Origin: Pirellulales bacterium
GTDB taxonomy: Bacteria; Planctomycetota; Planctomycetia; Pirellulales; JADZDJ01
DNA: 64,000 nt
Direction: 5' to 3'
Assembly: GCA_963820835.1 (NCBI GenBank)
Contig: CAWGBP010000036.1
Coordinates: 32,046-96,045 of the forward strand
A program made the translations under genes and the position numbers. Within the stretch, counting starts at the first letter, position 1; each line of letters begins with the position of its first letter. The notes beneath the pieces were generated by a model that worked only from the letters and a program-made list of their open reading frames with translations, was not told where the DNA came from and made no database searches. Below are positions 27,601-62,355 of this stretch, in pieces.

Positions 27601-30600
27601 GGCTTGAGGTAAATTCCATTGGCCGGGCGCACAAAGAGCAGCACCGTGCTATTGGTCCGATTGGTGTTGACCATCAAGTTGACCGACTGATCGGAATGGT
27701 ATTCAGGCTGGTCGGCAATCAGTTCCAAATCGTTGAAGCGAAACTGGCTACCATCGAAGCCTGCACCCACAATCGAGAATAAGTAGCCACCCTCGATTTT
27801 GTGTTGTTTTTCATCGGTCAGTTCGTAGGACAGACGATACTGTCCTGGCTCGGAAGCCTTGAGTTGCAATTCGGCGTGACCATTGGCGTCGGGGTTGAGC
27901 GGCCAAGTGCGCACTTCCGTTTCAATCGGTTTGGCGTCAGTGCCCGGTTTGTCTGAATTCTTGTAAGTAATTTTGTAAAGATGCGCTATACCGTCGCCGC
28001 GCACCGGCTTTTGGTCAATCGTTTGCGCTTGAAATTGAGCGCGAATCGAATCGCCTACGTGGAAATATCCGCGATCGACCCATGCATACACCTTGAACGG
28101 CTTACGGGCAACAAGCACCTTTCCCTGGCCGACGATAGTGCGTCGCGACTGGTCGGTCACTTCGGCCGTAATCGAGTATTGGTGATCGTGATCGGGATGA
28201 ATGAGCTTGGCCACCGATGTGTCGATTTCGACCGTGATCGTGCCGTCGGCGCCGATGGGCGCTTCGGCCTCGGCCACAACTTCCGGCGGCTGCTGCGGGC
28301 CCAAGCCCCACCACGGCGCAGCGGGCCGGCGGCAACCCCATTCGAGCCAACGGGGGTACCAGGAGTAATCGCACGCAAACCACCAATAGCCCGGACCGTA
28401 GAGCCAATCCCAGGGGCCCAGCGGGTACCAATCGCCGCTGTAGTTGGTGCGCAGAATTTTGTATTTCACCTTGGCGTTGGTGACGGGGGAACCGAAATAG
28501 TATTTCGCCTTAATCGTCGCTTGTATTTTGTCACCAAGCATGACCGGTTCGCTTGGTGCTTCGACAGTCACCTCGAATTCTGGCTTCTTGTATTCCTCGA
28601 CGCGGAAGCTGCCGCCCCCTTGATTCACCACGAACAGCTGATAAACGCCAAGCGTGGCGTCGGCCGGCAATTCGAACTGGCCATTGATGCCGCCATAGGC
28701 ATCGGTCGTGAACGACTTACCGAGAACTTTGTCGCCTTTAGGATTTTGAATTTCGACCGTAAATGCCTGATTTGCGAAATCGGATTTTTCGTCTTGATCG
28801 TACTGCGCGTGACGGACCCAAAATTTGAAATCGACCTTTTGGCCAGGTCGATAGACTGGCCGGTCGGTGATGGTATAGACCTTCGTTTCGTCGTATTGCG
28901 AGTCGTAGTATTCGCCGCTCCAGACATTCGTGAAGCCGAGATAGGCCAGCCGGCCCTGCGGCGTGGTGGCCGTGATAATCCATTGAAATTCGTTATCGTG
29001 TTCTTTTGAGCCGGCGACGAGTTGACCGTCTGCCTCCGTCGCTTCGGCAAAATCTTGCACATCGACGGTAAAGCGATTCGTGCCGACTGAACGCGAGCGA
29101 TAGCCAAAGAATTCGACGTTGGCTTTGGCCACCGGCGCCCCAGTGTCCGCATCGGCCACATAGTAGTACACGCCCTTGGAGAGCGGCTTTTTCACAATCG
29201 CTGTATCATTAAGCCAAAGGATGATGCGGCTGGTATTGCCATCGGCCATTTTCGCGGAGAGCAGGTATGCGCCGGCTTTTTGCAACGGAGTCGTGACCGC
29301 GATGCGCTTATCGAAGTGCTTTTCGCGAGGCTCAAGATCCAAGCTCCATTGGGCGACACGATCGCCGAGATATTGTGTCTCATTCTCCTGCACCAGCCGG
29401 TAGCCGATGTCGGCGATGTTGATTTTTTGCCAATCGATCTTCTGCGGGTTCGACTTCAAATAAGCTTTCACATCGTCGAGCAATTTGGCGGTTTTGATTT
29501 CGTGCGCTTCGAAGCTCACCTTGTGGCCATTGCGAAAGCGAAAATCGACAGTCGCCCCTTGTCCAGCGGCTTGCGCTATAACCGGCTCGAAGCGGCCCCA
29601 GTTGCCGACGATCTCGTCGATGCGATGCTTCTTATTGTCGTGGTCCCCCGGGCCGTATTCTTTAATGCTCTGGCGCCAATAGTCGGCCGCCTGATCGTAT
29701 TGGCGGCGGTTTTCGTAAATTTGCGCAAGTTGCTGCAGGGCGTCTTCGCCGTGGCCTGTTTTTGGCTCGTCGGCAATTTTGCGATAGATGGCGATAAAGT
29801 CGAACTCTTCGGGCAATTTGAACCGCTTGATGCCACCGGCCAGCCGCGCGATTGTTTCGTCGTCCCCCAGCGAATCGAGCGCCCAGATCCCCGATTCGTC
29901 TTTTTTGGCGTCGTCAGCGTCGGAGTTGCTAAAAAAACTACCGAAGTAAGCCATCGTTTGCACGCCGAATTGGTTTTGCAGAAAATCGGCGAATTGAAAG
30001 CGCACTTCGTTTAAGCGCGATGGGTCGTTTTCCGGCACTTGCGCCAATGCCCAGCGCCACCGCTCGCCGTCAGTCTGTGCAGTAGCCCAGCTTTTGGGCA
30101 AGTGATGGAACACGGGGTTACCATCGGCGTCCACCGGCGCTCCGCCAGCCCCGTTGTCTTGGTACCAGCCTTTTTCATAGTCGGGCAGTTGGCCAAGATC
30201 GGTCAGATATTGCAGCCGCCAGGCTTCGCCATAGCCACGGTCCGCCATGAGCATTTTTGATAGGTTCATCCAGAAGTTCGCGACGTCGCTTTTTTGCGGT
30301 TCGTTCGCCACGAGCGGGATTGCCTGCGTCATGAGTTGCAACGCACGCACGCGATCGCGCTCCATCGAGTTCACAGCATCTCCTTCGCCACGATGGGGAC
30401 CGCGAGAAAACTTGCCAGCGATAATGAATCCGTAGTGATCGTAGTGCAGGTAGCTTTCCGCCGCGGCCATTAACAGCCGCCAATTCCTAGCGTCGATTTG
30501 CGCCACATTTTCGCGCAGTTGGTCGATTTCATCCAAGCGGCCGAGTTGTTGGAGCGCCTGGAGCGCCATGTCGAGATCGCTGCCCACCCGTAGCGGGTCG

Positions 30601-30794
30601 TCTTTGGGATCGAGCGCCAACTGGCGAAAGCCGTCGTAGGCGTCTTTGTAGTTGCCATCGCTGGCGAGCTTATGGAGCTTTTCGCGCTGAGTTTCTTGTG
30701 AATTGTCGGCGTGGGCGGCAGGAATCACGATCGCAGCGATAGCTATCGCGATGATTACGGAAAGAGCCGCCGAAATGCGATTCGTCAATTTCAT
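24660..30794 (-). CDS. alpha-2-macroglobulin family protein with an intact thioester motif (~2044 aa)
   Basis: Signal peptide MKLTNRISAALSVIIAIAIAAIVIPAAHA (ATG at 30794). The thioester motif YPYGCTEQTLNRF has CTEQ encoded at 26274-26285. It also has MG-domain repeats, a TED region (LADGGWGWF) and a C-terminal receptor-binding-like domain. Confidence 0.92.
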   Translation of the reverse strand: MKLTNRISAALSVIIAIAIAAIVIPAAHADNSQETQREKLHKLASDGNYKDAYDGFRQLALDPKDDPLRVGSDLDMALQALQQLGRLDEIDQLRENVAQIDARNWRLLMAAAESYLHYDHYGFIIAGKFSRGPHRGEGDAVNSMERDRVRALQLMTQAIPLVANEPQKSDVANFWMNLSKMLMADRGYGEAWRLQYLTDLGQLPDYEKGWYQDNGAGGAPVDADGNPVFHHLPKSWATAQTDGERWRWALAQVPENDPSRLNEVRFQFADFLQNQFGVQTMAYFGSFFSNSDADDAKKDESGIWALDSLGDDETIARLAGGIKRFKLPEEFDFIAIYRKIADEPKTGHGEDALQQLAQIYENRRQYDQAADYWRQSIKEYGPGDHDNKKHRIDEIVGNWGRFEPVIAQAAGQGATVDFRFRNGHKVSFEAHEIKTAKLLDDVKAYLKSNPQKIDWQKINIADIGYRLVQENETQYLGDRVAQWSLDLEPREKHFDKRIAVTTPLQKAGAYLLSAKMADGNTSRIILWLNDTAIVKKPLSKGVYYYVADADTGAPVAKANVEFFGYRSRSVGTNRFTVDVQDFAEATEADGQLVAGSKEHDNEFQWIITATTPQGRLAYLGFTNVWSGEYYDSQYDETKVYTITDRPVYRPGQKVDFKFWVRHAQYDQDEKSDFANQAFTVEIQNPKGDKVLGKSFTTDAYGGINGQFELPADATLGVYQLFVVNQGGGSFRVEEYKKPEFEVTVEAPSEPVMLGDKIQATIKAKYYFGSPVTNAKVKYKILRTNYSGDWYPLGPWDWLYGPGYWWFACDYSWYPRWLEWGCRRPAAPWWGLGPQQPPEVVAEAEAPIGADGTITVEIDTSVAKLIHPDHDHQYSITAEVTDQSRRTIVGQGKVLVARKPFKVYAWVDRGYFHVGDSIRAQFQAQTIDQKPVRGDGIAHLYKITYKNSDKPGTDAKPIETEVRTWPLNPDANGHAELQLKASEPGQYRLSYELTDEKQHKIEGGYLFSIVGAGFDGSQFRFNDLELIADQPEYHSDQSVNLMVNTNRTNSTVLLFVRPANGIYLKPKILRLKGKSAVEEIAVVKKDMPNFFVEAVTVAGGKLYSEVKQIVVPPEKRVLNVAVDPSSETYKPGQKATVNLKLTDSDGKPFSGSTVVAIYDKSLDYISGGSNVEDIKQFFWKWQRSHYTSGETNLMQMFGNLVAAGKPLMEDIGVFGHVEPDDLTEETLVRTRNSAMEGAKFGPAPMTAAPAGSAMAMPSAPPELPSNAALNMNGGAGAAVEPTVRTNFADTALWVGSLTTNDDGTAQVSLTMPENLTTWKVRIWGMGHGTKVGEGAAEVVTRKNLIVRLEGPRFFVEKDEVVISANVHNYLKTAKTVTVALELDGNCLTPTDEMRRQIEVPSGGEARVDWRVKVAREGTATVRMKALTDEESDAMEQKFPVYVHGMLKTESFAGALRSDESISKISFKVPVERRADQSRLEVRYSPTLAGAMVDALPYLADYPYGCTEQTLNRFLPTVITQKVLINMGLDLKKIQEKRTNLNAQELGDDQKRAAGWKQFDRNPVFDQDEVTRMVKDGVQRLTDMQLADGGWGWFSGSDEQSYAHTTATVVHGLQIAQANDVALVPGVLDRGTQWLKDYQARQVQMLKNATAKPKPTEPYKTETDNLDALVYMVLVDAGVANDDMRDFLFRDRTKLAVYSKAMLGLTLAKQNQKEQLDMILQNLRQFVVEDEENQTAYLKLPADNYWWCWYGSETEANAYYLKLLSKTDPKGRLASRLVKYLLNNRRHATYWNSTRDTALAIESLADYLRASGEDKPDLTVEVWLDGKKQKEVKITAADLFTFDNKFVLEGSAVAVGAHQLELRKSGTGPLYYNAYLTNFTLEDPITAAGLEIKVQRKFYKLMPVDQTIKASGSHGQAVDQKVEKYQRKALSNLATLKSGDLVEVELEIDSKNDYEYIMFEDMKAAGFEPVELQSGYNGNSLGAYMELRDNKVTFFVRSLARGKHSVSYRLRAEVPGQFSALPTVASGMYAPELKGNSDEMKLKVRD

Positions 30795-31028
30795 GATGCT
30801 GAGCAAGGTTTGGAAAGCGGCGGGTGGCAGCTTGCGGGGTTGTCGAGGACGACGGGTGATGGCCCCAGCTTCTTGGGATGGTATGCCTAATATCTAAGAC
30901 GTAGCCGGGTGTGCGATTGTTCCCCCCGAGCGCACAGGAGCCGCTAACTTTCGGTCCAATCCAGTTACAGAAGGTTAAAAACCGCTGACCATCACAGAAT
31001 TTAGGCGGTTAGCCAAAGCAGAGCAACC

Positions 31029-34236: not shown

Positions 34237-35142
34237 AGCGTGTTTGTAAATTGAGAACTTGCATGAGATTGATGAAAAAGGTACGGCTCCATCCCCTTGT
34301 TGTGTTTCTAGAACACGGATGGAGCCGCACCCATGGACGGGCGAAAGTATCCCAGCGATTTGACCGACGAGCAATGGCAATTGATCCGACCTTTGTTGCC
34401 CCCGACGAGCCGCGTGGGACGGCCTCGCCAAGTCTGCCGTCGGCAGGTGATCAATGCCATTTTGTATGTGAATCGCACGGGCTGTCAGTGGCGTCAGTTG
34501 CCGCGCGACTTTCCCAACTGGCGAACGGTTTACCATTTGTTCTGGCAATGGCAACTGTGGAACCTGTGGCAGGAGATTCACGACACGCTCCGCGGGCGAG
34601 TCCGTCGCGCCGAGGGAAGAAAGGCAAAACCCAGTGCTGCGATTGTCGACAGCCAGAGTGTAAAAACCACGGAAGTCGGCGGAATTCGCGGGTACGATGC
34701 CGGCAAAAAAGTCACCGGCCGCAAACGACATGTGGCGGTCGATACGCTGGGGCTGATCTTGGCGCTGGTCGTGCATCGCGCCGATGTGCAAGACCAAGAT
34801 GGCGCGCGAATGCTGCTGGACCAAATGCGGCAGGGCTTTGGCCGACTGAAGGTCATTTTCGCCGATGCAGCCTACGCCCGCAGTGGATTGCCCGAATGGG
34901 TGAAAGCCACCTTTGGCTGGGTCTTGCAAACCGTGCTGCGGCCGGTTGGGATTCGAGGATTCGTGGTGTTGCCCAAACGCTGGATCGTCGAACGGACGTT
35001 TGCCTGGCTTTCACGCTGCCGCCGCAACAGCAAGGATTACGAACGAACCGTACGCTCCAGCGAAGCCATGCTCCACATCACTATGATTAACCTCATGTCA
35101 CGCCGTCTGGCACGGCTCAAAACCTAATTTACAAACACGCTC
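34236..35142 (+). mobile_element. IS5-family insertion sequence (907 bp, single transposase ORF)
   Basis: Perfect 17-bp terminal inverted repeats GAGCGTGTTTGTAAATT sit at 34236-34252 and 35126-35142 (reverse complement). They are flanked by a TTA direct duplication at 34233-34235 and 35143-35145. Confidence 0.9.
34333..35127 (+). CDS. IS5-family DDE transposase (264 aa)
   Basis: N-terminal YPSDLTDEQWQLIRPLLP...INAILYVNRTGCQWRQLP and a DDE region (AIVDSQSVKT, KRHVAVDTLG, FADAAY, VERTFAWL) typical of IS4/IS5 transposases. Confidence 0.92.
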   Translation: MDGRKYPSDLTDEQWQLIRPLLPPTSRVGRPRQVCRRQVINAILYVNRTGCQWRQLPRDFPNWRTVYHLFWQWQLWNLWQEIHDTLRGRVRRAEGRKAKPSAAIVDSQSVKTTEVGGIRGYDAGKKVTGRKRHVAVDTLGLILALVVHRADVQDQDGARMLLDQMRQGFGRLKVIFADAAYARSGLPEWVKATFGWVLQTVLRPVGIRGFVVLPKRWIVERTFAWLSRCRRNSKDYERTVRSSEAMLHITMINLMSRRLARLKT

Positions 35143-43786: not shown

Positions 43787-44062
43787 TCATTGCGCGTTTT
43801 GCTCGCGGAGTTTGCGAATTTCGTAGAGGTGCAATAATGCCAGCTTGTCCTTTGCGCGCCGCTCTAGTAATTGAATGCGGTCCGTCGGCGAAAGACTCAG
43901 TAAATATTTGATCAGACTAATATCCACACCACTTTCCGAGTACTCACCGTAATACTGGAAACTTCGGGCGTCCGGCAAGTTGTCAGAAGTTTTTCCTTCG
44001 CTCTGCATGACCGATTTGCCAGAAGTGCGCAGTGGATTATTGCGGCCCTTACCCCAAGTCAT
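43787..44062 (-). CDS. hypothetical small protein (start uncertain: 44062 or 44008)
   Basis: Open frame with a helical C-terminus (LIKYLLSLSPTDRIQLLERRAKDKLALLHLYEIRKL). No SD-like sequence and no family assignment. Confidence 0.4.
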   Translation of the reverse strand: MTWGKGRNNPLRTSGKSVMQSEGKTSDNLPDARSFQYYGEYSESGVDISLIKYLLSLSPTDRIQLLERRAKDKLALLHLYEIRKLREQNAQ

Positions 44063-44135
44063 TATACATTATTCAAGCGCTGTCCGCAGACCATCCTAAA
44101 CCGCACCCGCACTCTTACCGCTCGAAATCAATCTC

Positions 44136-45425
44136 ATGTCTCAAGAACTCCGCCAGCGACTATTCGACCAACTCGAATCAATCGTGCTCATCGATCCGCA
44201 CACGCACATCAATGCCCATCAACCGGCATCGGTAAGTCTCGCCGATATTTTGGGTTACCACTATTACACCGAGCTAGCGCACTCGGCCGGCTTGCCGCGC
44301 GAACGGATCGAGGAGCCAGGGCTGTCGGCCAAAGAAAAAGTGGGCCGGCTGGTGGCGGGCATGGCGCCCTTAGAGAACACGATTCAATACAGTTGGTTTA
44401 TTGAAATGGCGCAGGAGCTCTTGGGTTTCAAAGACGACCGGTTGACGCCACAAAACTGGGAAGGCTTGTTCAACACAGCGCATGAGAGGATGAGCAAGCC
44501 CGATTGGTTCGGGCAGGTGATGAAGAAATCGAAACTCGAAGCGGTGTTTCTCACCAACGATTTTGACGATGCGCTCACGGGTTTTGACACGAAGGTATTC
44601 ATTCCCTGCTTGCGCACTGACGATTTGGTGTTTCACTTCGCCAACCCCACGGTCCAACAGCGGCTGGCGCGGGCAAGCGGGATCGAGGCGAAAAATGCAA
44701 CGAGCATGCGGCAAGCCATCGGCAAATTGTTCCAGCACTTCACCAGCAAAGGATGCCGGGCCTGCGCGGTATCGCTGCCGCCGAACTTTTCGCCGACGAA
44801 GGTCGATGCCACGGCGGCCGACCACGCCGTCAAGGCAGCCCTTGAGCCGGCGGACAACATCAGCGAATTGCACCGGCGCGATCTATCAAACTTTGTGTTC
44901 TGGACGCTGGCCGAATTCTGCGTGGAATACTGGCTTCCGTTCGACCTGATGATTGGCGTGAACCGCGCGGTCTATACTGGGGGCGTATTCCAAGGGCAGG
45001 ATTTATACGATTCTCGCGTTTCGCTTATTCAATACCGCGAATTGTTCAACGCTTTCCCGCAAGTCACGTTTCCGATTTCGGTCCTAGCCAGCGTGACCAA
45101 CCAGGAGCTAACCAGCTATGCCTGGATCTTCCCGAACGTGGTGACCAACGGGCATTGGTGGTACTCGAACACGCCGACATTCATCGAGCACGATGCCGCC
45201 GCGCGGCTGGATGCAGTGCCGCGCACGAAGCAAGTCGGCTACTACAGCGACATGTACAAGTTGGAATTCGCCTTGCCGAAATTCCGCATGTATAAGCGTA
45301 TTTTGGCGAAGATTCTGGCCGAGCGATTTTGCATCGACCGCGGCTGGAGCGAAGAGCGCGCCGTGGCTTTTGGCCACGATGTGCTGCGCGGAAATGTGGA
45401 GCGGATTTTTTATGGGAAGAAATAG
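44136..45425 (+). CDS. amidohydrolase-fold protein, glucuronate-isomerase-like (tentative)
   Basis: 429 aa. N-terminal metal-binding-like LIDPHTHIN. Length and motif spacing are reminiscent of divergent UxaC-family proteins. The assignment is from memory only. Confidence 0.5.
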   Translation: MSQELRQRLFDQLESIVLIDPHTHINAHQPASVSLADILGYHYYTELAHSAGLPRERIEEPGLSAKEKVGRLVAGMAPLENTIQYSWFIEMAQELLGFKDDRLTPQNWEGLFNTAHERMSKPDWFGQVMKKSKLEAVFLTNDFDDALTGFDTKVFIPCLRTDDLVFHFANPTVQQRLARASGIEAKNATSMRQAIGKLFQHFTSKGCRACAVSLPPNFSPTKVDATAADHAVKAALEPADNISELHRRDLSNFVFWTLAEFCVEYWLPFDLMIGVNRAVYTGGVFQGQDLYDSRVSLIQYRELFNAFPQVTFPISVLASVTNQELTSYAWIFPNVVTNGHWWYSNTPTFIEHDAAARLDAVPRTKQVGYYSDMYKLEFALPKFRMYKRILAKILAERFCIDRGWSEERAVAFGHDVLRGNVERIFYGKK

Positions 45426-45466
45426 GGGCAGCTGCGAGCGATTAAAGCGTCATTTGTCGCAGCTCT

Positions 45467-46135
45467 TCACTTAATTGTATCGTCGGGCATGCCTTCGGCT
45501 TGACGCAAGTTGATCATCGTATTGAGATCTTTGGCCAGCGAGTCGACGTCTTTGTACTCACCTTTTTCAACTTTCTCAGCAAATGGGGCCGCATCGCGCG
45601 CGATGGCTTCGTACGTTTTGATGTCTTGCTTAATCGCGCTTTCCGGCAGGTCTTTCGTAAAAAAATGGGCATCTAGCTTCCAGACTCCTTTGACACGAAC
45701 TAGTTGAGACGTCGGTTCCGTATCGCCGGCAAACTGAACTGCTGCCTTGTCGCCATCGACCTTGAACGTGGCTTGCTTCACATCCTCATCGGTTCGATCT
45801 TGGATTGCATGGACGAACTGGTCGGCTTGTTTTCGGCCGAATTGCTTGCGGGCGGCCAATTCGACCCGGGTGATGGCCAGTCCATATTTGCACGAGGCAC
45901 GGGCCCATTGTTTTTCTAGGTCGGTGGAGTAATCGTACAGCCCGAGCGCCTGATCGAGATCGAGTTTTTCCATGTCGTCGGTTATGCGAAGCATGGCGGC
46001 TTCGGGAGATTCGTTGGCGGGAATGGCAGCCTTTTCCGTCTTTTGATCGGCCGGGGGTTGAGGCTCTTCGGCCCGCACATGAAAGCTGCCTACGAGCAAA
46101 CCAGTAGCGATCAGAACTGCGATGCGAAGTTTCAT
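45467..46135 (-). CDS. hypothetical secreted protein
   Basis: Signal peptide MKLRIAVLIATGLLVGSFHVRA. The mature part is acidic and helical. No recognised family. Confidence 0.6.
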   Translation of the reverse strand: MKLRIAVLIATGLLVGSFHVRAEEPQPPADQKTEKAAIPANESPEAAMLRITDDMEKLDLDQALGLYDYSTDLEKQWARASCKYGLAITRVELAARKQFGRKQADQFVHAIQDRTDEDVKQATFKVDGDKAAVQFAGDTEPTSQLVRVKGVWKLDAHFFTKDLPESAIKQDIKTYEAIARDAAPFAEKVEKGEYKDVDSLAKDLNTMINLRQAEGMPDDTIK

Positions 46136-46310
46136 GGCACATCATCCGAATGAGGTCGCTTTATATCGCAGACGCGGAAACCATTTTAACCTTCCGAGCC
46201 ACAGTTTGCAGAGTCGCCGGAGCTGCATTTCGAAGTGTCCGATGGGATTTCGCAGCGAGAAATAGGCAGATTCGCGCAGCGGCTTGTCCGCGTGTTTCCC
46301 TGCCGCCTTA

Positions 46311-47206
46311 GAAGCTGTTTCAAAACCTATTTTCGCTGATGCGTTAGCCGATTGAAGCAAATGAGGGAAGCCGCCAATTCGTGAAAGGCTTGGAAATGTT
46401 CCGCGGTACGTTCGTAACACAATTTAAGACGACGGAAGTTCCCGAACCAACTGAGGGTTTGTTCGACGACGTAGCGGGTTCGCCCCAGGCCGCTGCCGTG
46501 TTCGCGTTTCGAGTTGCCGTAGGGAGCCAACAGCGGTCGGATGCCCCGCTTCACGACTTGCCGCTGGATTGCCGCGCTGCCGTAGGCCGCGTCTCCTTGA
46601 AAGATTTTCGGCTTGCGGCGTGGCCGTCCCCGCCGGCCTGCGACGGCGGGAATTTTGTCCAACATCGCAATCGCACGCTTGCCATCGGGTTCGTTGGCCG
46701 GGCCGGTTTCGACCACCAACGGCAATCCCCTGGCGTCATCAATCACATGCCGTTTACAGCCGTTTTTCGAGCGATCCGTGGGATTGGGTCCGGTATGTTC
46801 CCCCCAAAAACAGCCCGCACCGAGGCGCTGTCGATGATGGCGCGGGAAAGCCGAATCGCACCCCGTTTTCCCAGGCGACGCAAGAGTTTCCGATGGAGTT
46901 GGGGCCAGATGTTCAAGCGGGTCCACTCTCGCAGCCGTCGCCAACACGTCACGCCACTGCCGCAACCCATTTCCAAGGGAAGCATGTTCCAAGTCACACC
47001 GCTCCTGAGCACAAAAATAATTCCCGCCAGACAAGCCCGGTCGGAAACCGACGGTCGTCCCCCTTGGGGCGATGGGATGCGTTTGGGCAATAGCGGTTCG
47101 ATTTCGTTCCATAGCTTATTCGGCACTAATGTAGCCATTTGTTCGCCTCCTTGCGGAACAAGAAGGCGAAATACTAGCAACCCAATTCAGGTTTTGAAAT
47201 AGCTTC
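46311..47206 (-). mobile_element. IS5-family insertion sequence (IS427/IS1031-like, 896 bp, two-frame transposase)
   Basis: 17-bp terminal inverted repeats GAAGCTGTTTCAAAACC (46311-46327) and GAAGCTATTTCAAAACC (rc of 47190-47206) differ at one position. TTA direct duplication is at 46308-46310 and 47207-47209. Confidence 0.88.
46327..47138 (-). CDS. IS5-family transposase, orfA/orfB joined by a -1 shift at a T5G6 run (46800-46810)
   Basis: orfA starts at the ATG at 47138 with AAGGAGG upstream (MATLVPNKLWNEIEPLLP...). orfB continues ...AVFGG|EHTGPNPTDRSKNGCKRHVIDDARGLPL...DAAY...VVEQTLSWF. The shift may be programmed or an indel. Confidence 0.85.
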
Positions 47207-47249
47207 TTAGAATTTTGCGTTCAAAACGAAGCATTCACGGGAGACACAT

Positions 47250-47950
47250 ATGATCACCGTTCGCAAGTCGGCCGAGCGCGGTACGACGCAGATCGATTGG
47301 CTCGACAGCCGCCACACGTTCTCTTTCGGCGATTACTACGATTCGCGCTGGATGGGTTTTGGCCCCTTGCGCGTGATTAACGAAGATTTTGTTGAGCCAG
47401 GCATGGGCTTCGGCATGCACCCGCACCGCGACATGGAAATCATTACCTATATCGTCAAAGGTGCCCTGGAACACAAGGATAGCCTGGGCACCGGTTCTGT
47501 GATCCGACCTGGCGACGTGCAACGCATGACCGCCGGCCGCGGCATCCGCCACAGCGAGTTCAATCCCTCGGCAACCGAGAGAGTGCATCTGCTACAAATT
47601 TGGATTGAGCCCAGCGAGCGTGGCTTGCAGCCAAGCTACGAGCAAAAAACGATTCCCGACGGCGAAAGGCACAACCGGTTGCGGCTGATCGCTTCGCCTG
47701 ATGGCCGCGATGGCTCGGTCACCATTCATCAAGATGCCGACGTGTATGCGGCGTTGTTAGACTCGGGAACAGAGCAGTTTCATACGCTGCGCCCGGCCGA
47801 TCGGCATGGCTGCAATTGATCAAAGGAGCAGTCACCCTGAACGGCCAGGAACTGGCGACTGGCGACGGAATTGCTATCAATGAGGAGGGCGCGCTGGCCA
47901 TTTCCGTCCAAAAACCCGCGGAATTGCTGCTCTTCGACATAGCCGGCTGA
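47250..47950 (+). CDS. pirin family protein (YhhW/quercetinase-like bicupin), frameshifted near 47792-47798
   Basis: The N-terminal cupin carries [46 protein letters not shown] and RHSEFN. The listed ORF ends at 47819. A shifted frame continues ...[37 protein letters not shown]...LLFDIAG* to 47950. Confidence 0.82.
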
Positions 47951-47998
47951 ACCGAAAAGGCTCAACGGGAGCCACGCCCTCATCCAACGGCGCGGCCG

Positions 47999-49256
47999 TT
48001 AATTCACATCAATCGCGCCGGCAATCGATTCCGCGACGTGAAGCAAAAACAAATCTTCGCCGAAGCTGCCAATCAGCGATAGGCCGACTGGTGCCGCACC
48101 TGTGTCTGATTCGATAGTCGATAGCGGCATGGAGACTTGCGGCAAGCGGCCAATTCCGGCGATCGATGTGAGCGACAACGCCCGTTTGTAGTAATCGCCG
48201 GTGCGCTGGTCCATGCCCAGGCTCCCTTTAATGGGGGCCGACGCCGGCGTCGTGGGAATGCAAAGCAGATCGCGCGGCCCCAGGAATTTTCGCAAGCTAT
48301 GGTAATACTGTTCACGGCGCGCGATAGCCGGCGGCACGCGGCGGCGATCTAAGCTGCTCACAAGTTCAAAATTCTTGGTCGTCACTGGGCCGAACATCGG
48401 CTCTGCGTCGGCAATCCAAGAGCCAAGCGAGCCTTCGATTTCGCTCCACTGGATGACGCAATAGGTATCGAACCAGGAGTCGAATGTCATGGCGACGGAA
48501 CCGCCGACAATTCTACTCAACGATATATCACGCACCGCGGCGCCGAACAGTTTTCGCAGCCAGTCGATCGCCGGCTCATGTGCCTTTTGCACTTCCGGCA
48601 TGGCCAATTCAAAACCATCGCGGAGCAAATAGATGGCGGTTGGACGCGAGTCTCCGCTGCTTTTCGATTGCGGTGGAGCACCCAATCAGAACGCGCAATG
48701 CGCGATTGAGAATTTCCGCCGTGCGCGCATGCACGCCGACAGTATCGAATGTCGGCGCAAAGGGCATGACTCCCGCCACGGAAATAAACCCATGCGAGGG
48801 GCGCAATCCCCAAATACCGCAATTGCTTGCCGGCACTCGCACTGAGCCGCCGGTATCGCTGCCCAGGGCGAAATCGGCCAATCCGCACGCGACTGCGGCG
48901 GCCGATCCGCTCGATGAGCCCCCCGGCACTCGATCTGGCGCTTTGGGATTCAGCGGCGTGCCATAAAAATGGTTTTCGCCGATCAGGCTGAAAGCGACTT
49001 CGTCGGATACCGTTTTGCCAATGCATCGCGCTCCGTTGTAGAGCAGCTGCTCGACGCAATTGGCGTGGCTTCGCGCCGGTGGATGGGTATCGCGCCATGT
49101 CGGATTACCGCAGCCGGTCTTTCGGCCGGCAATATCGATGATGTCCTTCACGGCAAACCGCAAGCCGTCCAGCGGGCCGTCGCCGGTCGGCGCCAATTCG
49201 AATGTTTCGACAAAGGCGCCGCTTTGCTCGATAGTAATCGCTCCAGAACCAACCAT
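47999..49256 (-). CDS. amidase-signature enzyme, AMI1/indole-acetamide-hydrolase-like subfamily, frameshifted at the CCC run 48681-48683
   Basis: ORFs 48609..49256 and 47999..48685 join as ...RALRVLIG|APPQSKSS.... The Ser-cisSer-Lys signature is present: FAVKDIIDIAG, GGSSSGSAAAVA, GSDTGGSVRVPAS. End-to-end resemblance to plant AMI1 is as I recall that sequence. The ATG lies 5 nt after the kinase stop. Confidence 0.85.
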
Positions 49257-49261
49257 TGGCT

Positions 49262-50951
49262 TTATCCTTTCGCTGCGGTTTTGCCCGTGAGCATGGCCAC
49301 GACGGCCAGCAGTTCGCCTGCATCGACGGGTTTAGTGACATGTGATTGATAACCGGCCATCATGGCGCGGCGACGGTCTTCGGTTCGGGCAAAAGCGGTC
49401 AGAGCTATTGCTGGGACAGAGCGGGTCCGACCGTCGCGCAAATCTCTGACTTCACGAATGAATTGATAGCCATCCTTTCCCGGCATGCTGATGTCGCTAA
49501 TGAGCACATCGGGCTGAAACGATTCGAGCATGCCCAAAGCTTCGTCGGCTGTGGCAGCCGTTTGGACGAGCACCTTACTTTGCACCAACAGCCGGCGAAC
49601 CACGTCGCGGGCGTCGGGCTCGTCATCCACTACCAAAACCTTCACCCCTTCCAGATCTGGCGGCGTGAACGCTTCGTGATGCCCCGTGTCGGCGCGTGGA
49701 TGGAAGCGGTTGAGTTCTTGCGATGGGTGAATTTGCAGCGGCAATTTAATCGTGAACGTCGAGCCTTGATTTTCGCCAGGGCTTTTAACAAACGTCGATC
49801 CACCGTGAAGTTCGACAATTTGCTTGACGATGGCCAGGCCCAGACCCAGACCGCCATGGCGGCGGCTGGTGGCCGTTTCCGCCTGGCGAAAGCGGTCGAA
49901 GACATAGGGCAGAAATTCCGGCGCTATGCCTTGCCCAGAATCAGCGACATTGATTTCCAAATGCGAATTCACGCGCTCCAGCGAGATTTGAATTCGACCA
50001 CCGCGCGGCGTGAACTTCACAGCATTGGAGAGCAAATTCCAGAGCACTTGCTGCAGGCGCTGGAAATCGCCCAGCGCCGGCCCTGCGCGGGTCAAGCACT
50101 TTCTGCAAACGGATTTCTTTGGCATCGGCGGCAGGTCGAATGGTGTCGATGGCGGCCTCGATCACATCCGACAGGTTCACAGGATGGACATCGAGACGGA
50201 TCTTACCCGAGATGATGCGGCTCATATCGAGCAAATCCTCGATGATCTGCACTTGGGCGCGGCAATTGCGCTCGATGGCATTGAGTGTTTCAGTGACCTC
50301 TTGCGGCTGAATCGCGCCGGCTTTGAGAAGTTGCGAATACCCCATAATGGAACTGAGCGGGGTGCGCAATTCGTGCGAAACCACCGATAGGAATTCGTCT
50401 TTGAGGCGATTTGCCCGCTCGGCCTCGCCGCGCGCGGCCCGTTCGCTGGCCAACAACTGCTCGCGTTCGTTCTCCTGGGCGCGCAATTGTCGCTCACTTT
50501 CGCGCAGCGCTTCCTCGGTCTGCTTGCGCTCTTGCACCTCGCGCGTTAGCGACGAATTCAGAATTGCCAAACCAGGCAGCTTGAGCGCTTTCGGAGTGAT
50601 AACCGCCAGGGCAACCACAGTCGACCAAGAAGCGACCGCGGTTATCAATTTCACCAGACCGCCGATCCGGTAAATTGGATGCCAAAAAATAATGGCCTCA
50701 ATCAAATGTGTGGTTCCGCAGGCAAAGATGAAGATCACAAACAACCAAAAAATCCGCGGAAATGGTACATCGCGCCGCCGTAAAACGAAGTAGGCGATTA
50801 CCAGCGGAATGGCCGTATATGCGCCAAAGATCGCCAGGTCGGAGTAAATGTGCAGCCAGCCAAGCGCCGGATCGTCGGCCCAACCGCTGCCGCAATACCA
50901 GCGTGGCGGAAAGCCGGCCGTGTCGAAAGGATTGTCAAGAATAGTTGCCAT
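49262..50951 (-). CDS. hybrid sensor histidine kinase/response regulator with an ETR1-like (ethylene-binding-domain-like) N-terminal membrane sensor; frameshifted near 50080-50095
   Basis: ORFs 49941..51107 and 49262..50125 join around ...LQKVLD(P)R|AGPALGDFQRLQQVLWNLLSNAVKFT. It has three TM helices, a coiled coil, HisKA (FLSVVSHELRTPL), HATPase (DSGQGI, GGLGLGLAIV) and a receiver (VLVVDDEPDARD...SDISMPGKDG...TKP). The start is ATG at 50951 or 50972. Confidence 0.85.
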
Positions 50952-51085
50952 GGGGCAGGATCCTATGGGCATGCAATAGGTTGAGCGAAGGCGTGCAAAT
51001 CGCAGTCTAATTTCGACAGAATGGATTTCAGTGTCAAGCGAAAGCGTGTTCGAGTGCGCCCTGCCCGTCATGACAGCAGGTTCAA

Positions 51086-52453
51086 TCAACGGGCGGTATC
51101 CGACCACTCTGATTCCGAAACTTCCGCCGCCTCCACCGGCAGCGAAGCGGGCTTGGGAACCGCCGCATCGAGCCGGCCATATTTTCGAAGTTGAGGAAAT
51201 AGCACTGCCGCAAGCCCGACAACAACCAGCGTGCCGGCGCCGCCGCTCACAGCCGAGATCGTCGCGGCGCCGATAGTGCCATAACCGACTGATTTGAAAA
51301 GTTGTGCCACTCCGCCCGATTCGATGTCCCCCACTTCGTTCGAAATCGAAATGAACATGCCGTTGATGGCCGAGACGCGGCCGCGCATTTCGTCGGGCGT
51401 AAGCAATTGAATGAGCGATTGCCGCACCACCACGCTGATGTTGTCCATCGCGCCGGTCACGAACAGCATCCCAACGGAAAGGTAGATGTTCCGCGAAAGG
51501 CCAAACACGATGGTGGCCACGCCGAATCCGGTGACCGCGCCCAACAATGCCAGGCCAGCGTGCTTCATCGGCCTGCGGTGCGACAAAATAAAGGCCATCG
51601 TGAGTGCGCCGACTGCCGGCGCGGCTTGCATCACGCCGAAGCCGAACGAGCCCACTTTCAATACATCTTTAGCGTAAATAGGCAATAGCGCCACCGCCGC
51701 GCCGAACAGCACGGCAAACATATCTAAACTGCTCGCGCCCAGAATGACTTTGTTGCGCCACACGTATTGAATTCCGGCTGCTAGATTTTTAGCGGTGAAT
51801 GCTTGCTTCGCCGCCTTGTTTCGCCGATAGCGAATTTGCGACAAGATCGCGCAAAAACAGAGGGCAAAAGCCGCATCGCAAACGAATACGATGGCCGATG
51901 ATCCAAATAGCGCGATTATTCCTCCCGCCGCCGCCGGTCCCAGCACTGAGGCAAATTGAAATGCAGTGGCGTTCCAAGTAACGGCATTGGGAAACACGCG
52001 CCGCTTCACCAACTGCGGCATCATCGATGCTTTAGCCGGCTGTTGGAACGATCGGGCTATGCCGGCCACGAAGAGGCACGCATACATCAAAATAATCGGC
52101 GCTTTGAGCGCGGTAACGACCGCTAAGCCCGCCGAGCCGGCCGAAATGAACACCAGCGCCGTCATCACCACCTTGCGGCGATTAAATCGATCGGCCACAT
52201 GCCCTGTGAATATGGCTAACCCCAACACGGGCAACACTTGCACCAGCCCGACCAAGGCCAACGAAATGGGTGCGTTGGTCCGATCGTAAACTTCCCACCC
52301 CACCGCCACCGATTGCATCTGCAGCCCAAAGATCGACAAAAAATTGCCGATCATGTACAGCCGAAAGTTTTTTATTCGCAGCGCCGCGTATGGATCGTGC
52401 GTGCGCAGTGCGATTTCGGCAGAGTCGTGAGGCGTGCGATCCATCGGCTCCAC
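51086..52453 (-). CDS. MFS transporter
   Basis: Twelve to fourteen hydrophobic helices. Motif A-like GHVADRFNRRKV follows TM2. The start is GTG at 52453 or ATG at 52444. Confidence 0.88.
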   Translation of the reverse strand: MEPMDRTPHDSAEIALRTHDPYAALRIKNFRLYMIGNFLSIFGLQMQSVAVGWEVYDRTNAPISLALVGLVQVLPVLGLAIFTGHVADRFNRRKVVMTALVFISAGSAGLAVVTALKAPIILMYACLFVAGIARSFQQPAKASMMPQLVKRRVFPNAVTWNATAFQFASVLGPAAAGGIIALFGSSAIVFVCDAAFALCFCAILSQIRYRRNKAAKQAFTAKNLAAGIQYVWRNKVILGASSLDMFAVLFGAAVALLPIYAKDVLKVGSFGFGVMQAAPAVGALTMAFILSHRRPMKHAGLALLGAVTGFGVATIVFGLSRNIYLSVGMLFVTGAMDNISVVVRQSLIQLLTPDEMRGRVSAINGMFISISNEVGDIESGGVAQLFKSVGYGTIGAATISAVSGGAGTLVVVGLAAVLFPQLRKYGRLDAAVPKPASLPVEAAEVSESEWSDTAR

Positions 52454-52545
52454 AGTTTACTCGATGCGATTTCGCTTGAGAACCGGCGCGGCGATGCGCG
52501 AAAGGCGTCTAACTATCGATGGTACAGGGGGACCTGCGTCGCGGC

Positions 52546-53776
52546 TCAATTCTCCATCGCTTCGACCGCGAGGGATTGAAACTGCTTGCGAATGTCGCTG
52601 GCGTCTCCATTGCCCATTCCCACGCGACCAATGAGCAAAATGAGAAACTCGCCTTTGGCAGGATCGATCCAGCCTTGAGTACCATAGGCCCCGCCGTGAC
52701 CGTACGTGCCCGGCGAGAGCATTGCAGTTACGCCTTGCGGCTCGCGGACCACGCCGAAGCCTAGCCCGTAACCCATGCCCGGCGTGAAGCCAGCTTTCAA
52801 TTCGCCAGTTTGGTTTTGCGTCATCTCGTGTAGCGATTTTTCGGAGATGATGCGATGGCCGTCGAGCTCGCCGCCGCGCAATCAGCGCCTGATACAACCG
52901 CCCCAAATCGGCGGCCGTCGAATACAATCCGCCCGACGGACTAAAGTATTTCGGCTTTTTGGTAGGCACGGCCATGGCCGCCTTAGGAAGCGTGTCGGCT
53001 GGCACGAGTTTGCCATCTTTCTGTCCGCACACTTCCGCCAAACGTTCCGTTTGCTCAGGCGTTAGATAAAACGCCGTGTCGCGCATTTCGAGCGGTTGGA
53101 AAAACCGCTGGGCCAAAAACTCTTCGTACGGTTGGCCCGAAACCACTTCGATAATGCGCCCCAAGATGTCGATGCCTGAGGAGCTATATTTCCATTTGCT
53201 TCCCGGCTCGAAATCCAGCGGCCGCTGCGACAATATGCAAGCCAGTTCGTCGAGCGTGTAATCGCGGTTGCGCATCAAGTTGGCAAGGCCTATCGGATAA
53301 TCGAGCAACCCGGAGGTGTGTGTGAGCAAATCGCGCAGCGTAATGGGGCGTGGTGATTTTTTGACGGAAACGGTGCCGGCCAAAAGATCGATCGAATCGA
53401 TAAGTTTTTGTCCTTTAAACGCCGGCAGATACTTTTCCACGGGATCGTCGATCGATAGTTTTCCCTCTTCTGCAAGCAACATGATGCCCATGGCCGTGAT
53501 TGGTTTGGTCATCGACATGATCCGAAAGATGGCGTCTTTGGGCATTGGTTTGTCGGATTCGAGCGTTTGTTTGCCGACGGCCTCGGTGTAAACCCTTCCA
53601 TCGGCGGTACCAATGGCCATAACCGCGCCGCAGACGGTGCCATCGTCGACGAACTTCAGCATCGCCGGCTTTGTTGCAGCCAGCTTTTCAGGGTTAAACT
53701 TCGGCGGCGCGGCCGAGGTATGCTGCGAACTGCAAATTATGAAAACAAATAGCAGCCGAGATAAAATGCGTCGCAT
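52546..53776 (-). CDS. serine hydrolase, beta-lactamase family (secreted), frameshifted near 52878-52882
   Basis: Signal peptide MRRILSRLLFVFIICSSQHTSA. S-x-x-K in IMSMTKPITAMG. ORFs 52457..53776 and 52546..52881 join as ...GRLYQAL(I/M)|RGGELDGHRIISEKSLHEMTQ...GTYGHGGAYGTQGWIDP. Confidence 0.8.
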
Positions 53777-53876
53777 TTAGACCTTTCTATTGGTTCATCT
53801 GGTGTGGGTTATTATAAAATCTAACCGCGTTGTAGTCGCGGTTGCAAAATAGCGTTTGCCCATTATTCTTATCCCC

Positions 53877-58193: not shown

Positions 58194-61100
58194 TTACGGT
58201 GCTGGCGCGGTGCCTAGCAAGTTCTCTTCCTCTTCTTCTTGAATAATGATTCGCGGCGTGACCATCATCATCAAACTGTTGGTGGTGCGGCCGATGCCGA
58301 CATTGCGGAACAGGCGGTTGATGTATGGCAGTTTACTCAGAATCGGCACACCGGCTTCGTTGCGGCCTTCGCTTAGACGTTTGATGCCGCCCAAGAGCAC
58401 GGTGCCGCCATCGGGCACGCTAACGGTGGTCGACACCGACTCGACCGCGAGTTCGGGCAATTGCACCGTAGTGCCTTCGTTAATTTGCGTACTGCCGTTG
58501 CTGGCCGCAGTATCGTCGCCAGCCTTGGAATCGGACGAATTGCTGATGGTGGTCGTCGTGCCGGTGAATTGGAATGTTTGCACGTCGCCAATGGTGCTGA
58601 AATAGGGCACAACCGTCAGGCGTACAAACCGCCGGTCGCTCGAAACCACGGCCTGAACTGTGAGCGCGGTGCCTTCCGCGAGCACGACGATGACGGGTTG
58701 CTGCGCGGCGGCAAAATCGCCGACCACCGGAATAATTTCTGTCACGAACGGCCTGAACGTTTGATCCTGCACGGTTGCTGTTTGACCGTTGAAAAGCGTA
58801 ACCTTGGGCGCCTGCATCACATTGCTGCGGTTGTCGCCTTGCGCGGCTGTGATCAAGAAATATGCTTCGATATCGCTCAAAATCGCAAAGCCAAATGTTG
58901 CGGCTTGAGACGGATCGAATCCGAGCCCCGGGAATGTCGGGGGCGTCGAAGCGGAAAAACTACCTTGGCGAAATTGGACATCTTGTAGCGGCGTGACCAT
59001 ATTGGTGGGCGACAATCCGACAACGGCACTTGGATTGACCCCATTGAACGACGGAGCACCGGAGGGGAGGCCGGCACCGGGCTCCGGCGGCGGGTTGGGC
59101 GCAGTAGTGTGGCTGGCAATATTGAAATCGAAATTTACGCCAATGCGTTCGAAAAAGTCGTCGTTGAGCGTGATGAAACGCACCTCGATCGTCACTTGCA
59201 GGTCTTGCAAGCGGCGAAGCTGCTGCAGCAAGTCGGCGATTTCTTCATGCTTTTCCTGCGTCTGATAGATGACGAGGCTCAAATTCGTGTCGAACGGCTC
59301 GATGGTCCCGCCGTCTGGATTCACGTCGCGCCAAATGGTTGGCGGACCGACGGTATCTTGAATCAGGTTGATCAGCTGATCGAAGTCGGCTTGCGAACCA
59401 CCTTTGGCGCCACCCGGTCCGCTGGCTGCGAAGGGATTGCCTTGATTGACGCCCGTTTTCGGCGGGCCGCCGCTGCCGATGGGCAAACCAAGGGCCGGCT
59501 GCACCTGAGCGAGCGTTAGCGGGTTAACGGAGCTTTTATCATTGGACGCCATTGCGATCGGGCCCATGGAAGATACACTGCCGCCGGCCGCACCGCTCCA
59601 ACCCATGCGCGAGTAGGCCTCGCGCAAGGCGCCATTCAGCCCATCGCGACCGTCGGAAATGAAGTTTGGAATGGGAATGACGAGGTCAGCCACGTAGTAA
59701 GTGACTGGGTAGAGTTCGCCGTTGCGCATATCTTGGCTAGTTATCTTCAACACTTCGTCGCTGACGATGTATGTCAGCCGCAGCGGGTCGAGAATGAGCT
59801 TAAGTGCACTTTTGAGCGAAATGTCTTGGCTCAGGTCAATCGTCACCGGCGTATCGCTGCCCACGCCTTCGGCCGCTAAACCCTTCGGGTCGAGGTAGAC
59901 GGGCACCTGGGCAATTTTGCCGAGATATGAAATGACTTCGTTCAGCGGCCGCTGCTGAAATTTCAGCGAAACGGGAGTGGTCAAACGCTGCTCGATCTCA
60001 AGATCTTTCGGCGAGCGGCGGAAGTTTCCTTCCTTGCCGAATTTCCCGCGCTTATTCGTCAGATCGGTCCATTTTTTCAAATCGGGCATTTCATACGGTC
60101 CGACGAAAGGAACGGCCGATTTATCAACGTCGTACATGGCCTGATAGAAGCCGTCTTCTTTCGCGTCCTTCACATCTTGCTGCTGCGCCATGCGCTGCAG
60201 GAACTTGGCCATCAGATTGAGTTGCGTCACGACCGGATTTCGCGGGTCGAGCTCGGCACATTCCTTGGCCACGACGCGGGCTTCCGCATAGCGTTGTTCT
60301 TCGACAAGCTTATTGAACTGATCGACCTTGTAGGCGAGCTTTTCGTCGACCACGACTTTTTGCTTGCGCTGCTGATCGACTTCGGCCTCGATTTTTTGAT
60401 TTTTCTCGTCCAATTCAATTTGCGGCGCGTTTTGCGCGATGTGCTTTTGCATGTCGGCAATGCTCATATCCAACCGGCGCAGCAATTGTTCGCGGCTCAC
60501 AGGATCGAGATCGGAGTTGGCTGCGACCGTGGCCCGCATGCTTTGCAACAGTTCGAGCGCTTGCTTAGGCTTTTTCTCTTTCAGGTCGCGGGCAGCGCTT
60601 TGTTGCTTGGCGACTTCCGCCGCGACCTGGCGCGCCGAGGGTTGATTGGCGGCAGTGGGCGCGGCAGGCGCTGTGGCCGAGGCGGTGATCGCACCGGCGG
60701 AAAGGCCGCCATTAGCGGTCGACCCTGCAACGGGTTGATTCGAATTTCCGGCTCCGGCATCGATTTGGGCCACCGTTTCCGCTTGAACGCCCAGCATTTT
60801 CAAATGATCTTGCAGTTGGCGGCGTGTTTCGGGATCGAGCTCGGCTTGAAAGGCCCACGCGCGGCGGAAATCGTGCACTGCCTCTTGCGAATTCGATTGG
60901 CTCAGCGCCTGCAGCCCTTGTTGGAACCAATGGCGCCCTTCGCCCGTACCGGCATCAGGCGATGGAGAACCCATGCCTTGCGGCGCAAGCGCCGTATCGC
61001 CAATTCCCATGGGCAAACCAGCGGGAATGCCTGACGGGGCGCTATTTGCCACGGCACGCTGCACTACAGGTGGCGATTCTTGTGCCGCGGCTGTCATGTT

Positions 61101-62355
61101 TCGTGTGGCATCGGCCTGAGGATCGTAAACCGCGCAGCGCCGGGTAGCGACTGTCGTCGGACGCGTTTCCATTGGCGTGAATGACGCCAGATGACGTTTG
61201 CTTCTTGGCGCGTTGAATATCGAGCAGCACCAGACTGGGGCGATCCTCGCGCGGCGCATAGGCGGAGTCGGGCGCCAATGTTTCTGCCTGATGCGCAAGC
61301 CGTTCAGCCAGCGCGGCGTTGCCTTCGCTCAGCGCCTTGCGCGCTTCGGCCGTCAATTCCAACGCTTGCGCTTTTCCGCCATCACCAGCCATTTTCATTG
61401 CGCTTGCGCCGAGTGTGGCCGCGGGGGCCAACGTGCCTGGCACGCTTTGCAGGTTGCCGGTAGCGGCGGCTGGATTGTCGTTGGTGGCATAATAGTCGGG
61501 CGATACCAGCGGCGGCGCGTTCGCATAGCGGCTGCCAACCATGCCCGTTGGTGATTCAATCGGCGTCGAAATGGGCACGGCGCCCAGCGCTTCGTTTGCA
61601 GTTGGAATGCTGTCGCCCGGCGGCGGTGATGCGGCCGCGGCCATGTTCGTGCTAGGGCTCGTACTGCCAGGGAGCGTTGGCACGTTTGGAGGCTCGATGT
61701 CCCAAGGGTTCGGCCCCTCGTCTCTGATCGAACTCAAACGGTTCGCCGGCGAGGTTTGTGATTGTACGCCAGGCGACGAAGAATTCATGCTGCCCTGCGA
61801 ACCATAGCCACGAGCGGCAAGTTGCTGGGCCGTCATGCCCGGTTCCGTCGATCGGCCTTGCGCGGCAGGCGGATTATAGCGGTTCGAACCGCTGGTGGTT
61901 TCGGCCAGGCTGTTGGCGCTTGTGCCGGCGGCTTCCACCGACGGACGAGTCAAGAACGGATCGCTGGATGCGCCCGATTTGCCGCTGGCGGCGGTCTTAC
62001 CGGCGAACTTGCCTTTTTGGGCGGCGAGCTTTTCCAAATCGGCGTGGGCTCGTTTGGGAGTATCGCCGGAATAGAACAACGGATATTTCGGACGCAAGGC
62101 GTCGGCCTGTGCAATTTTGGAAGCGGCCGCATCGAGATTGCCGCCGTTCATTGCTTGGCGAGCTTCGCGGAGCAAATCGTCGGCTTGTTTCACGGCGGCG
62201 GAATTTCCGTCGTCGCCTAAACTGGCCGCGCCCATCAGCATGGCTAGCGCAACCGATTGCGAGCCGGCCCAACACAACGTCGGAGCGGCGGCCAAAGTGA
62301 ACGCACAAAACGCGGCAAAAATCTTGGTCGTGGTATTCAACGCACGATCCTCCAT
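58194..62355 (-). CDS. secretin (type II/III secretion system / GspD-PilQ family) with a very long N-terminal extension; probable frameshift near 61127-61131
   Basis: The C-terminal secretin domain runs ...TVSVPDGGTVLLGGIKRLSEGRNEAGVPILSKLPYINRLFRNVGIGRTTNSLMMMVTPRIIIQ. ORF 58194..61298 has no signal peptide. The overlapping upstream ORF 61042..62355 has one (KIFAAFCAFTLAAAPTLCWA) and the same repeat style. The frames can be joined by a 1-nt change in GCGGTTT. Confidence 0.7.

Follow-up and report, generated by a model that had tools for sequence, protein, structure and literature searches.

A putative hybrid histidine kinase with an ETR1-type ethylene-binding domain in an uncultured Pirellulales planctomycete

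Plant ethylene receptors signal through CTR1 and EIN2. The gene described here lies on the minus strand of a 64-kb stretch of contig CAWGBP010000036.1 from a Pirellulales bacterium (that whole stretch is called the window below) and encodes a putative hybrid histidine kinase whose N-terminus resembles the membrane domain of the Arabidopsis ethylene receptor ETR1. Signalling by plant receptors does not depend on a histidine-kinase phosphorelay (PMC11819568). The cyanobacterial receptors SynEtr1 and GeiEtr1/2 signal by true histidine-kinase phosphotransfer (PMC11819568, PMC6682694), and a role in dimerisation has been proposed for the one N-terminal Cys of cyanobacterial receptors (PMC6682694). 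A preliminary description of this locus held that functional receptors outside plants are characterised essentially only in cyanobacteria, a view that is outdated since AzoEtr1, the receptor of a two-component system in the alphaproteobacterium Azospirillum brasilense, was shown in 2025 to bind ethylene (PMC11819568). The same paper cites direct evidence that in the fungus Rhizophagus irregularis ethylene binds to a receptor with an effect on physiology (PMC11819568), and a 2023 study compared 1,221 ethylene-binding domains of eukaryotic and prokaryotic origin (PMC10266040). In the literature open to our search, we found no paper linking ethylene receptors and planctomycetes.

The first 137 residues of the window protein (window 50951-50541, the limits drawn in the preliminary description) were used as the query for the domain. 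Residues 30-125 match the Pfam family ETR1_N (PF25487) over profile positions 2-97 of 97, scoring 123.8 bits where the curated cut-off is 27 (E 3.6e-36). An ETR1-type N-terminal sensor with three transmembrane helices had been proposed for this protein, along with a profile search as the way to check it, and the significant end-to-end match agrees with that proposal. A database fragment of a plant 'ethylene receptor' (P0124) is 31% identical to the domain (BLASTP, E 2e-10). The AlphaFold2 model of the domain (pLDDT 89.3, pTM 0.75) has helices at residues 28-58 (transmembrane helix 1, TM1), 65-87 (TM2) and 94-123 (TM3), and hydropathy likewise gives three hydrophobic segments. Since the N-terminal segment is net acidic and the loop between TM1 and TM2 carries four Arg, the positive-inside rule fits a topology with the N-terminus outside and the C-terminus inside, as in ETR1.

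The residues of Arabidopsis ETR1 (AtETR1) needed for ethylene binding are D25, Y32, I35, P36, I62, C65 and H69. When the domain was aligned in MAFFT with 20 plant sequences, several of them named 'ethylene receptor', and with the AtETR1 N-terminus, these residues fell opposite D38, Y45, I48, P49, I75, C78 and H82 at a constant offset of +13; the plant numbering can also be read off the BLASTP alignment to P0124. Published work puts the number of residues needed at seven (PMC11819568), describes the role of Cys65 and His69 in ETR1 and models a coupling of Asp25 with Lys91 (PMC10266040). Six of the seven positions had been listed in the preliminary description with the same offset, and MAFFT returned the same six; the list of required residues was sound as far as it went but left out the seventh (I62, here I75), which is also conserved. 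The gapless alignment to ETR1 described there does not hold, as both MAFFT and BLASTP place a 3-residue gap in the TM2-TM3 loop. TM3 therefore runs at an offset of +10, which makes K101 the counterpart of ETR1 K91. Ahead of TM1 the protein has no alignment to ETR1.

Conservation was surveyed in 142 representatives of clusters at 50% identity. D38, I48, P49, I75, C78, G79, H82 and K101 are the same in all 142 and Y45 in 141, so that the Cys/His pair, whose survey in orthologues had been suggested as a further check, is kept throughout (142/142). Ahead of TM1, R17, W18 and C20 are also invariant in the 142 cluster representatives, C20 being the single invariant Cys in this segment, like that of cyanobacterial receptors. 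It could be argued that hydrophobic helices resemble one another by chance and that the domain is a generic membrane anchor. This carries the general risk of all membrane-helix alignments and nothing more specific, while the Pfam match covers the full profile and the polar and charged residues within the membrane (D, C, H and K) are conserved in 142/142, making chance likeness extremely improbable. The generic anchor is refuted by the Pfam match, the residue alignment, the conservation across 142 members and the match to AzoEtr1. Judged by its sequence, the domain is a true bacterial relative of the membrane ethylene-binding domain of the plant receptors, with a likeness far beyond chance.

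The rest of the protein is that of a hybrid histidine kinase (Table 1). As written, the gene consists of two overlapping open reading frames (ORFs) on the minus strand, 49941-50951 and 49262-50125, in differing frames. The first begins with MATILDNPFDTAGFPPRWYCGSGW at an ATG at 50951-50949, a start codon supported by orthologues in which the aligned Met is the start; it encodes ETR1_N and HisKA and then runs through nonsense to a stop at 49941. The second encodes HATPase_c and the receiver domain. Once the frame is repaired, the order is ethylene-binding domain, heptad-phased linker helix, HisKA, HATPase and receiver. The phospho-acceptor His193 lies within SHELRTPL (codon 50373-50375), the HATPase_c motifs are intact (N box NLLSNAVKF, G1 DSGQGI, F FDRFRQ, G2 GGLGLGLAI), and the receiver has DD443-444, the phospho-acceptor D487, T519 and K541. 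The H box, the N, G1, F and G2 boxes and the receiver DD/D/T/K set that mark a hybrid kinase of the HisKA class are all present; the single uninterrupted frame is not, as the gene is split by a 2-nucleotide (nt) deficit at 50084-50087. A Pfam search of the window protein found no GAF domain between the ethylene-binding domain and the kinase at E <= 1, and no PAS domain. The preliminary description was thus right, by homology, about a fusion through a coiled coil to HisKA, HATPase and receiver that lacks GAF, but it missed the interruption of the frame. Overall, we think it quite probable that this is a membrane-bound hybrid histidine kinase of an uncultured soil-type Pirellulales planctomycete, with the ETR1-type domain as its only sensor and probably made at its full 563 amino acids (aa).

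Counted from the conserved Pro120, which stands at the end of TM3, the His of the H box is 73 aa away in the window protein. Among 35 relatives in which the ethylene-binding domain is linked directly to HisKA, this distance is 31, 38, 45, 52, 59, 66, 73 or 80 aa, all equal to 3 mod 7, in 31, compared with a chance expectation of ~5/35. Insertions and deletions in the linkers of orthologues are 7, 14 or 21 residues long. Because the lengths are 3 mod 7 and the indels are multiples of 7, the linker sequences argue for a continuous coiled coil that would hold TM3 in register with the DHp helices.

At the frame break the window reads GAC CCG CGC A GGG, compared with GAT CCA CGC GCT GGT in the orthologue of the Pirellulales metagenome-assembled genome (MAG) SMAG_U5412 (L025), leaving the window 2 nt short in a CGCGCGC run. 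Single-frame orthologues colinear with the joined pieces are found in six genomes, with 71% identity over residues 7-560 in L025 and 58-61% identity to the repaired protein in L038, L034, L033, L002 and L036; the junction reads LDP(R/K/T/Q)A(G/A) in these six, save for L036 with LDERAG. Programmed frameshifting was ruled out, as all orthologues are single-frame. At least seven genes in the window are frame-broken (Table 1), and the four sites that were closely inspected, in the pirin, amidase, kinase and beta-lactamase genes, are GC-rich runs and not long homopolymers. Long genes elsewhere in the window are intact (2,048 aa, 1,034 aa, 895 aa, 667 aa and others), and apart from its single break the kinase has no further damage. 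Since the housekeeping gene cmk, in the conserved tmk-cmk-plsC block, is also broken, consensus errors should account for at least some of the breaks. Nearest to the window, with a threonyl-tRNA synthetase (ThrRS) 91-93% identical to its own, are MAGs of the 'MFD' series with contig_N names; we take these to be long-read assemblies, and close homologues from similar assemblies are broken at other positions (e.g. P0001, P0018 and P0061).

A consensus error in the assembly is the most likely explanation of the break, and the organism probably makes the full 563-aa protein. The break may nevertheless be real. Six of the seven breaks fall within 11.4 kb (43.4-54.8 kb), and the stretch at ~44-53.8 kb is a variable block that carries an insertion sequence (IS) element, an IS5-family transposase, and is missing upstream of tmk in the nearest relatives. 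On such a reading, slippage would have deleted 2 nt and separated the ethylene-binding domain and HisKA from the HATPase and receiver, leaving a pseudogene and no working receptor. The break is, after all, present in the sequence, it sits in a dinucleotide repeat instead of a homopolymer, the non-essential neighbours (pirin, amidase, beta-lactamase and glycogen-debranching enzyme) are broken too, and the block is not syntenic with the nearest relatives. Nonetheless, we consider a pseudogene unlikely, given that the syntenic cmk is broken as well, that relatives in the same assembly type are broken elsewhere, and that all catalytic motifs and binding residues are intact in a protein 71% identical to, and colinear with, an intact orthologue.

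To see how common the domain is, we searched the 137-aa domain with phmmer against 1.84 billion cluster representatives (50% identity). At E <= 1e-3 it matched 7,537 proteins, of which 5,248 reach E <= 1e-10 and 653 reach E <= 1e-30; the proteins are 129 to 1,364 aa long. In a set that takes a single genome for each GTDB species, a relative is encoded in at least 553 stretches, and among the best 80 of these, which the taxon counts cover, 59 are Planctomycetota (Pirellulales, Planctomycetales, Gemmatales, Isosphaerales and Phycisphaerae); the other 21 belong to Verrucomicrobiota, Polyangia, Hydrogenedentota, Acidobacteriota, Proteobacteria and others. Among the best 80 are the cultured Blastopirellula marina DSM 3645, Lacipirellula limnantheis I41, Neorhodopirellula pilleata Pla100, Stieleria mannarensis, Planctomicrobium sp. 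SH661 and Tautonia sp. The Pfam/UniRef label already exists, the Neorhodopirellula protein being named 'Ethylene receptor 1-like N-terminal domain-containing protein'. It had been suggested that a planctomycete homologue with all ligands intact would be unusual; with 7,537 matching clusters and Planctomycetota making up 59 of the best 80 (of at least 553), it is not. The planctomycete host suggested at the same time is borne out by the ThrRS, 91-93% identical to those of Pirellulales MAGs. The gene is an ordinary member of a known and already annotated family that is abundant in its phylum.

Among 78 close relatives, HATPase_c was found in 62, HisKA in 53, PAS in ~48, a receiver in 22 and GAF in 6, and with GAF in only 6/78 its absence from the window protein is normal for the clade. 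Full-length relatives were drawn from the phmmer and GTDB genome searches; the homologue search with queries of 141-153 aa gave proteins of up to ~265 aa, in which fragments, frame-broken pieces and short free-standing proteins are over-represented. Proteins of 190-231 aa with the ethylene-binding domain only were numerous in the searches (e.g. P0005, P0014, P0026 and P0199). In Neorhodopirellula pilleata Pla100 (L057 5782-8369) the receptor is split: the end of a 193-aa protein of ethylene-binding domain and coiled coil (P0042) lies 4 nt inside the ATG of a membrane histidine kinase of 601 aa, which by eye resembles a PAS-type sensor kinase. The Pirellulaceae MAG contig CAVTIV010000008.1 has at least two ethylene-binding-domain genes ~40 kb apart (L009/L081 and L020), and the MAG JTS-AC163 has copies on two contigs; as two MAGs carry multiple copies, paralogues within a genome are common.

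The window protein is most likely a Cu(I)-dependent sensor of ethylene or a similar ligand that feeds a phosphorelay. Its N-terminus would lie in the periplasm and the invariant Cys20 may link two subunits, each holding one Cu(I) through the TM2 residues Cys78 and His82, which Asp38 would orient. The copper would bind ethylene or a small unsaturated ligand like it, and the signal could pass via a D38-K101 bridge to TM3 and then through the rigid coiled coil to DHp, altering autophosphorylation at His193. The phosphoryl group would move to Asp487 of the fused receiver and then to an Hpt protein and a response regulator encoded elsewhere, and, by analogy with ETR1, ethylene probably lowers kinase output. 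We infer the binding and signalling steps from ETR1, SynEtr1 and AzoEtr1.

Several points weigh against this proposal. Binding of the ligand by planctomycete domains is predicted from sequence, and the direction in which the ligand would regulate the kinase is pure analogy. The domain matched nothing in the PDB by sequence at E <= 10, nor did its AlphaFold2 model by Foldseek at E <= 0.001, which leaves the geometry of the metal site as modelled only. On the side of the output pathway, the 64-kb window encodes neither an Hpt protein nor a separate response regulator, and across 103 other loci no neighbour is conserved, the amidase, major facilitator superfamily (MFS) transporter and beta-lactamase genes never adjoining an ethylene-binding gene. 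It is also conceivable that the fold is truly that of ETR1_N, Cu(I) site included, and that the physiological signal in planctomycetes is something other than ethylene. One could think of copper or redox status, of a different small molecule that binds Cu(I) (carbon monoxide, other alkenes or alkynes, isocyanides), or of ion permeation, which has recently been claimed for plant receptors; Ca2+ permeability is attributed to these in recent papers. Few non-plant receptors have been tested for ethylene binding, and compared with plant ETR1 the clade has invariant features of its own, namely the RWxCG motif and the shorter TM2-TM3 loop. However, all ETR1 ethylene-binding residues are invariant across the clade, and both tested bacterial domains, SynEtr1 and the 45% identical AzoEtr1, bind ethylene, which makes a different signal improbable in our view. 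Ethylene binding by the window domain itself appears likely.

The amidase gene starts 5 nt past the kinase stop, and the MFS transporter gene lies upstream of the kinase. A functional operon of the kinase with the amidase, MFS or beta-lactamase genes was rejected, as these neighbours are not conserved in the 103 loci. Scans for promoters and terminators gave hits at chance level only, and no second ethylene-binding domain is encoded in the 64-kb window. The variable block (~44,000-53,800) holds genes for a uxaC-like protein, a 222-aa secreted protein, the IS5-family transposase, pirin, amidase, kinase, MFS transporter and beta-lactamase, and in the closest relatives (L185, L186 and L187) no homologues of its genes were found upstream of tmk; downstream of it, tmk-cmk-plsC is syntenic with these relatives. 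GC content is uniform across the window, so composition gives no sign of recent transfer. Both transposases of the window consist of DUF4096 and DDE_Tnp_1 and share no nucleotide similarity. Genes for ThrRS and an EPSP-synthase-family enzyme are present, and the window is chromosomal.

Table 1. Coordinates of the kinase gene, its parts and other features of the window.
Feature	Position	Strand	Remarks
Whole hybrid histidine-kinase gene	49262..50951	minus	563 aa after frame repair
N-terminal segment, residues 1-29	50865..50951	minus	motif FDTxGFPxRWxCG; predicted periplasmic
Ethylene-binding domain (Pfam ETR1_N), residues 30-125	50577..50864	minus	Pfam, AlphaFold2, hydropathy
TM1 residues D38, Y45, I48, P49	50805..50840	minus	ETR1 D25, Y32, I35, P36 by alignment
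TM2 residues I75, C78, H82	50706..50729	minus	ETR1 I62, C65, H69; Cys/His are the proposed Cu(I) ligands
K101 in TM3	50649..50651	minus	ETR1 K91; polar partner of the TM1 Asp
Linker/signalling helix (coiled coil), ~residues 120-190	50382..50594	minus	connects TM3 to DHp (HisKA)
HisKA (DHp), residues 184-248	50208..50402	minus	Pfam PF00512, E 8.8e-19
Frame break	50084..50087	minus	R289 and A290 codons overlap by 2 nt
HATPase_c	49733..50071	minus	Pfam PF02518, E 2.6e-31
C-terminal receiver	49298..49639	minus	Pfam PF00072, E 5.4e-25
Frame-broken glucose/sorbosone dehydrogenase	~12.1 kb		
Frame-broken glycogen-debranching enzyme	~43.38 kb		
Frame-broken pirin	~47.79 kb		
Frame-broken amidase	~48.65 kb		
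Frame-broken kinase with ethylene-binding domain	~50.09 kb		
Frame-broken beta-lactamase-family protein	~52.88 kb		
Frame-broken cytidylate kinase (cmk)	~54.73 kb		
Transposase, IS5-family	46327-47180	minus	split over two frames
Transposase, IS4/IS5-family	34333-35127	plus	single 264-aa ORF
Bacterial alpha-2-macroglobulin	24660-30806	minus	2,048 aa, intact
Secretin-domain protein	58194-61298	minus	1,034 aa, intact

Taken as a single gene, the kinase is of modest interest and adds nothing new in kind; the planctomycete clade taken together deserves rather more interest. The gene points to a reservoir of candidate planctomycete receptors with perfectly conserved ligand residues. The bacterial side of classic plant-hormone perception is barely explored, with working proof for SynEtr1 and AzoEtr1 only, and here there is a very large clade of ethylene-binding domains in Planctomycetota, Verrucomicrobiota and other soil and water phyla in which every Cu/ethylene ligand residue is invariant. 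That the PVC bacteria (the Planctomycetota-Verrucomicrobiota-Chlamydiota group) use ethylene sensing as a mainstream signal, provided that the domains bind ethylene, is to our mind as likely as not. If they do, the gas would be sensed far from the plant-hormone setting, and it could be given off by algae, plants or other microbes or arise by photochemistry. Some architectures are the clade's own, namely the direct heptad-phased link to the kinase and split forms that pair a free-standing ethylene-binding protein with a separate kinase by translational coupling. Proteins with the direct heptad-phased link are simple models for the passage of a signal from a three-helix membrane domain to a kinase, a question that is open for ETR1 because no structure of the ethylene-binding domain has been solved. 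Cultured strains, Blastopirellula marina and Lacipirellula limnantheis, exist.

Compared with the receptors described to date, the window protein shares with Arabidopsis ETR1 and the plant subfamily-1 receptors the PF25487 domain, the seven residues for binding, the Asp-Lys pair and, at the C-terminus, a module resembling a histidine kinase, with a receiver. Identity to the plant receptors is ~31%, and unlike the window protein these contain a GAF domain and a pair of N-terminal Cys; their TM2-TM3 loop exceeds that of the window protein by 3 residues. SynEtr1 (slr1212, Synechocystis PCC 6803) and GeiEtr1/2 (Geitlerinema), which were compared by description only, likewise have bacterial ethylene-binding domains with one N-terminal Cys. 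However, in the cyanobacterial receptors GAF/cyanobacteriochrome or PAS domains separate the kinase from the ethylene-binding domain, and these receptors sense light too (PMC6682694), and the window protein has neither.

AzoEtr1, which we located on the Sp7 plasmid ABSP7_p1 (L104 2477-4054) as a 525-aa protein with an overlapping response-regulator gene as published, has an ethylene-binding domain 45% identical to that of the window protein (BLASTP, E 3e-32), with no gap in the TM2-TM3 loop. Both proteins have the Lys as well as the seven binding residues, and in both one Cys lies at the N-terminus and a helical linker follows the domain. They differ further along: AzoEtr1 lacks a fused receiver, and the 3' end of its gene is overlapped by that of a separate response regulator, whereas in the window protein the ethylene-binding domain is joined directly to HisKA in a protein with its own receiver, and no partner gene is nearby. 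The planctomycete orthologues in L025, in Lacipirellula sp. (L002) and in Blastopirellula marina DSM 3645 (L040) have the same architecture as the window protein, at full-length identities of 71%, 59% and 40%, respectively. Each is encoded in an uninterrupted single frame, compared with the window copy broken by 2 nt, and their linkers differ in length from that of the window protein by multiples of 7 residues.

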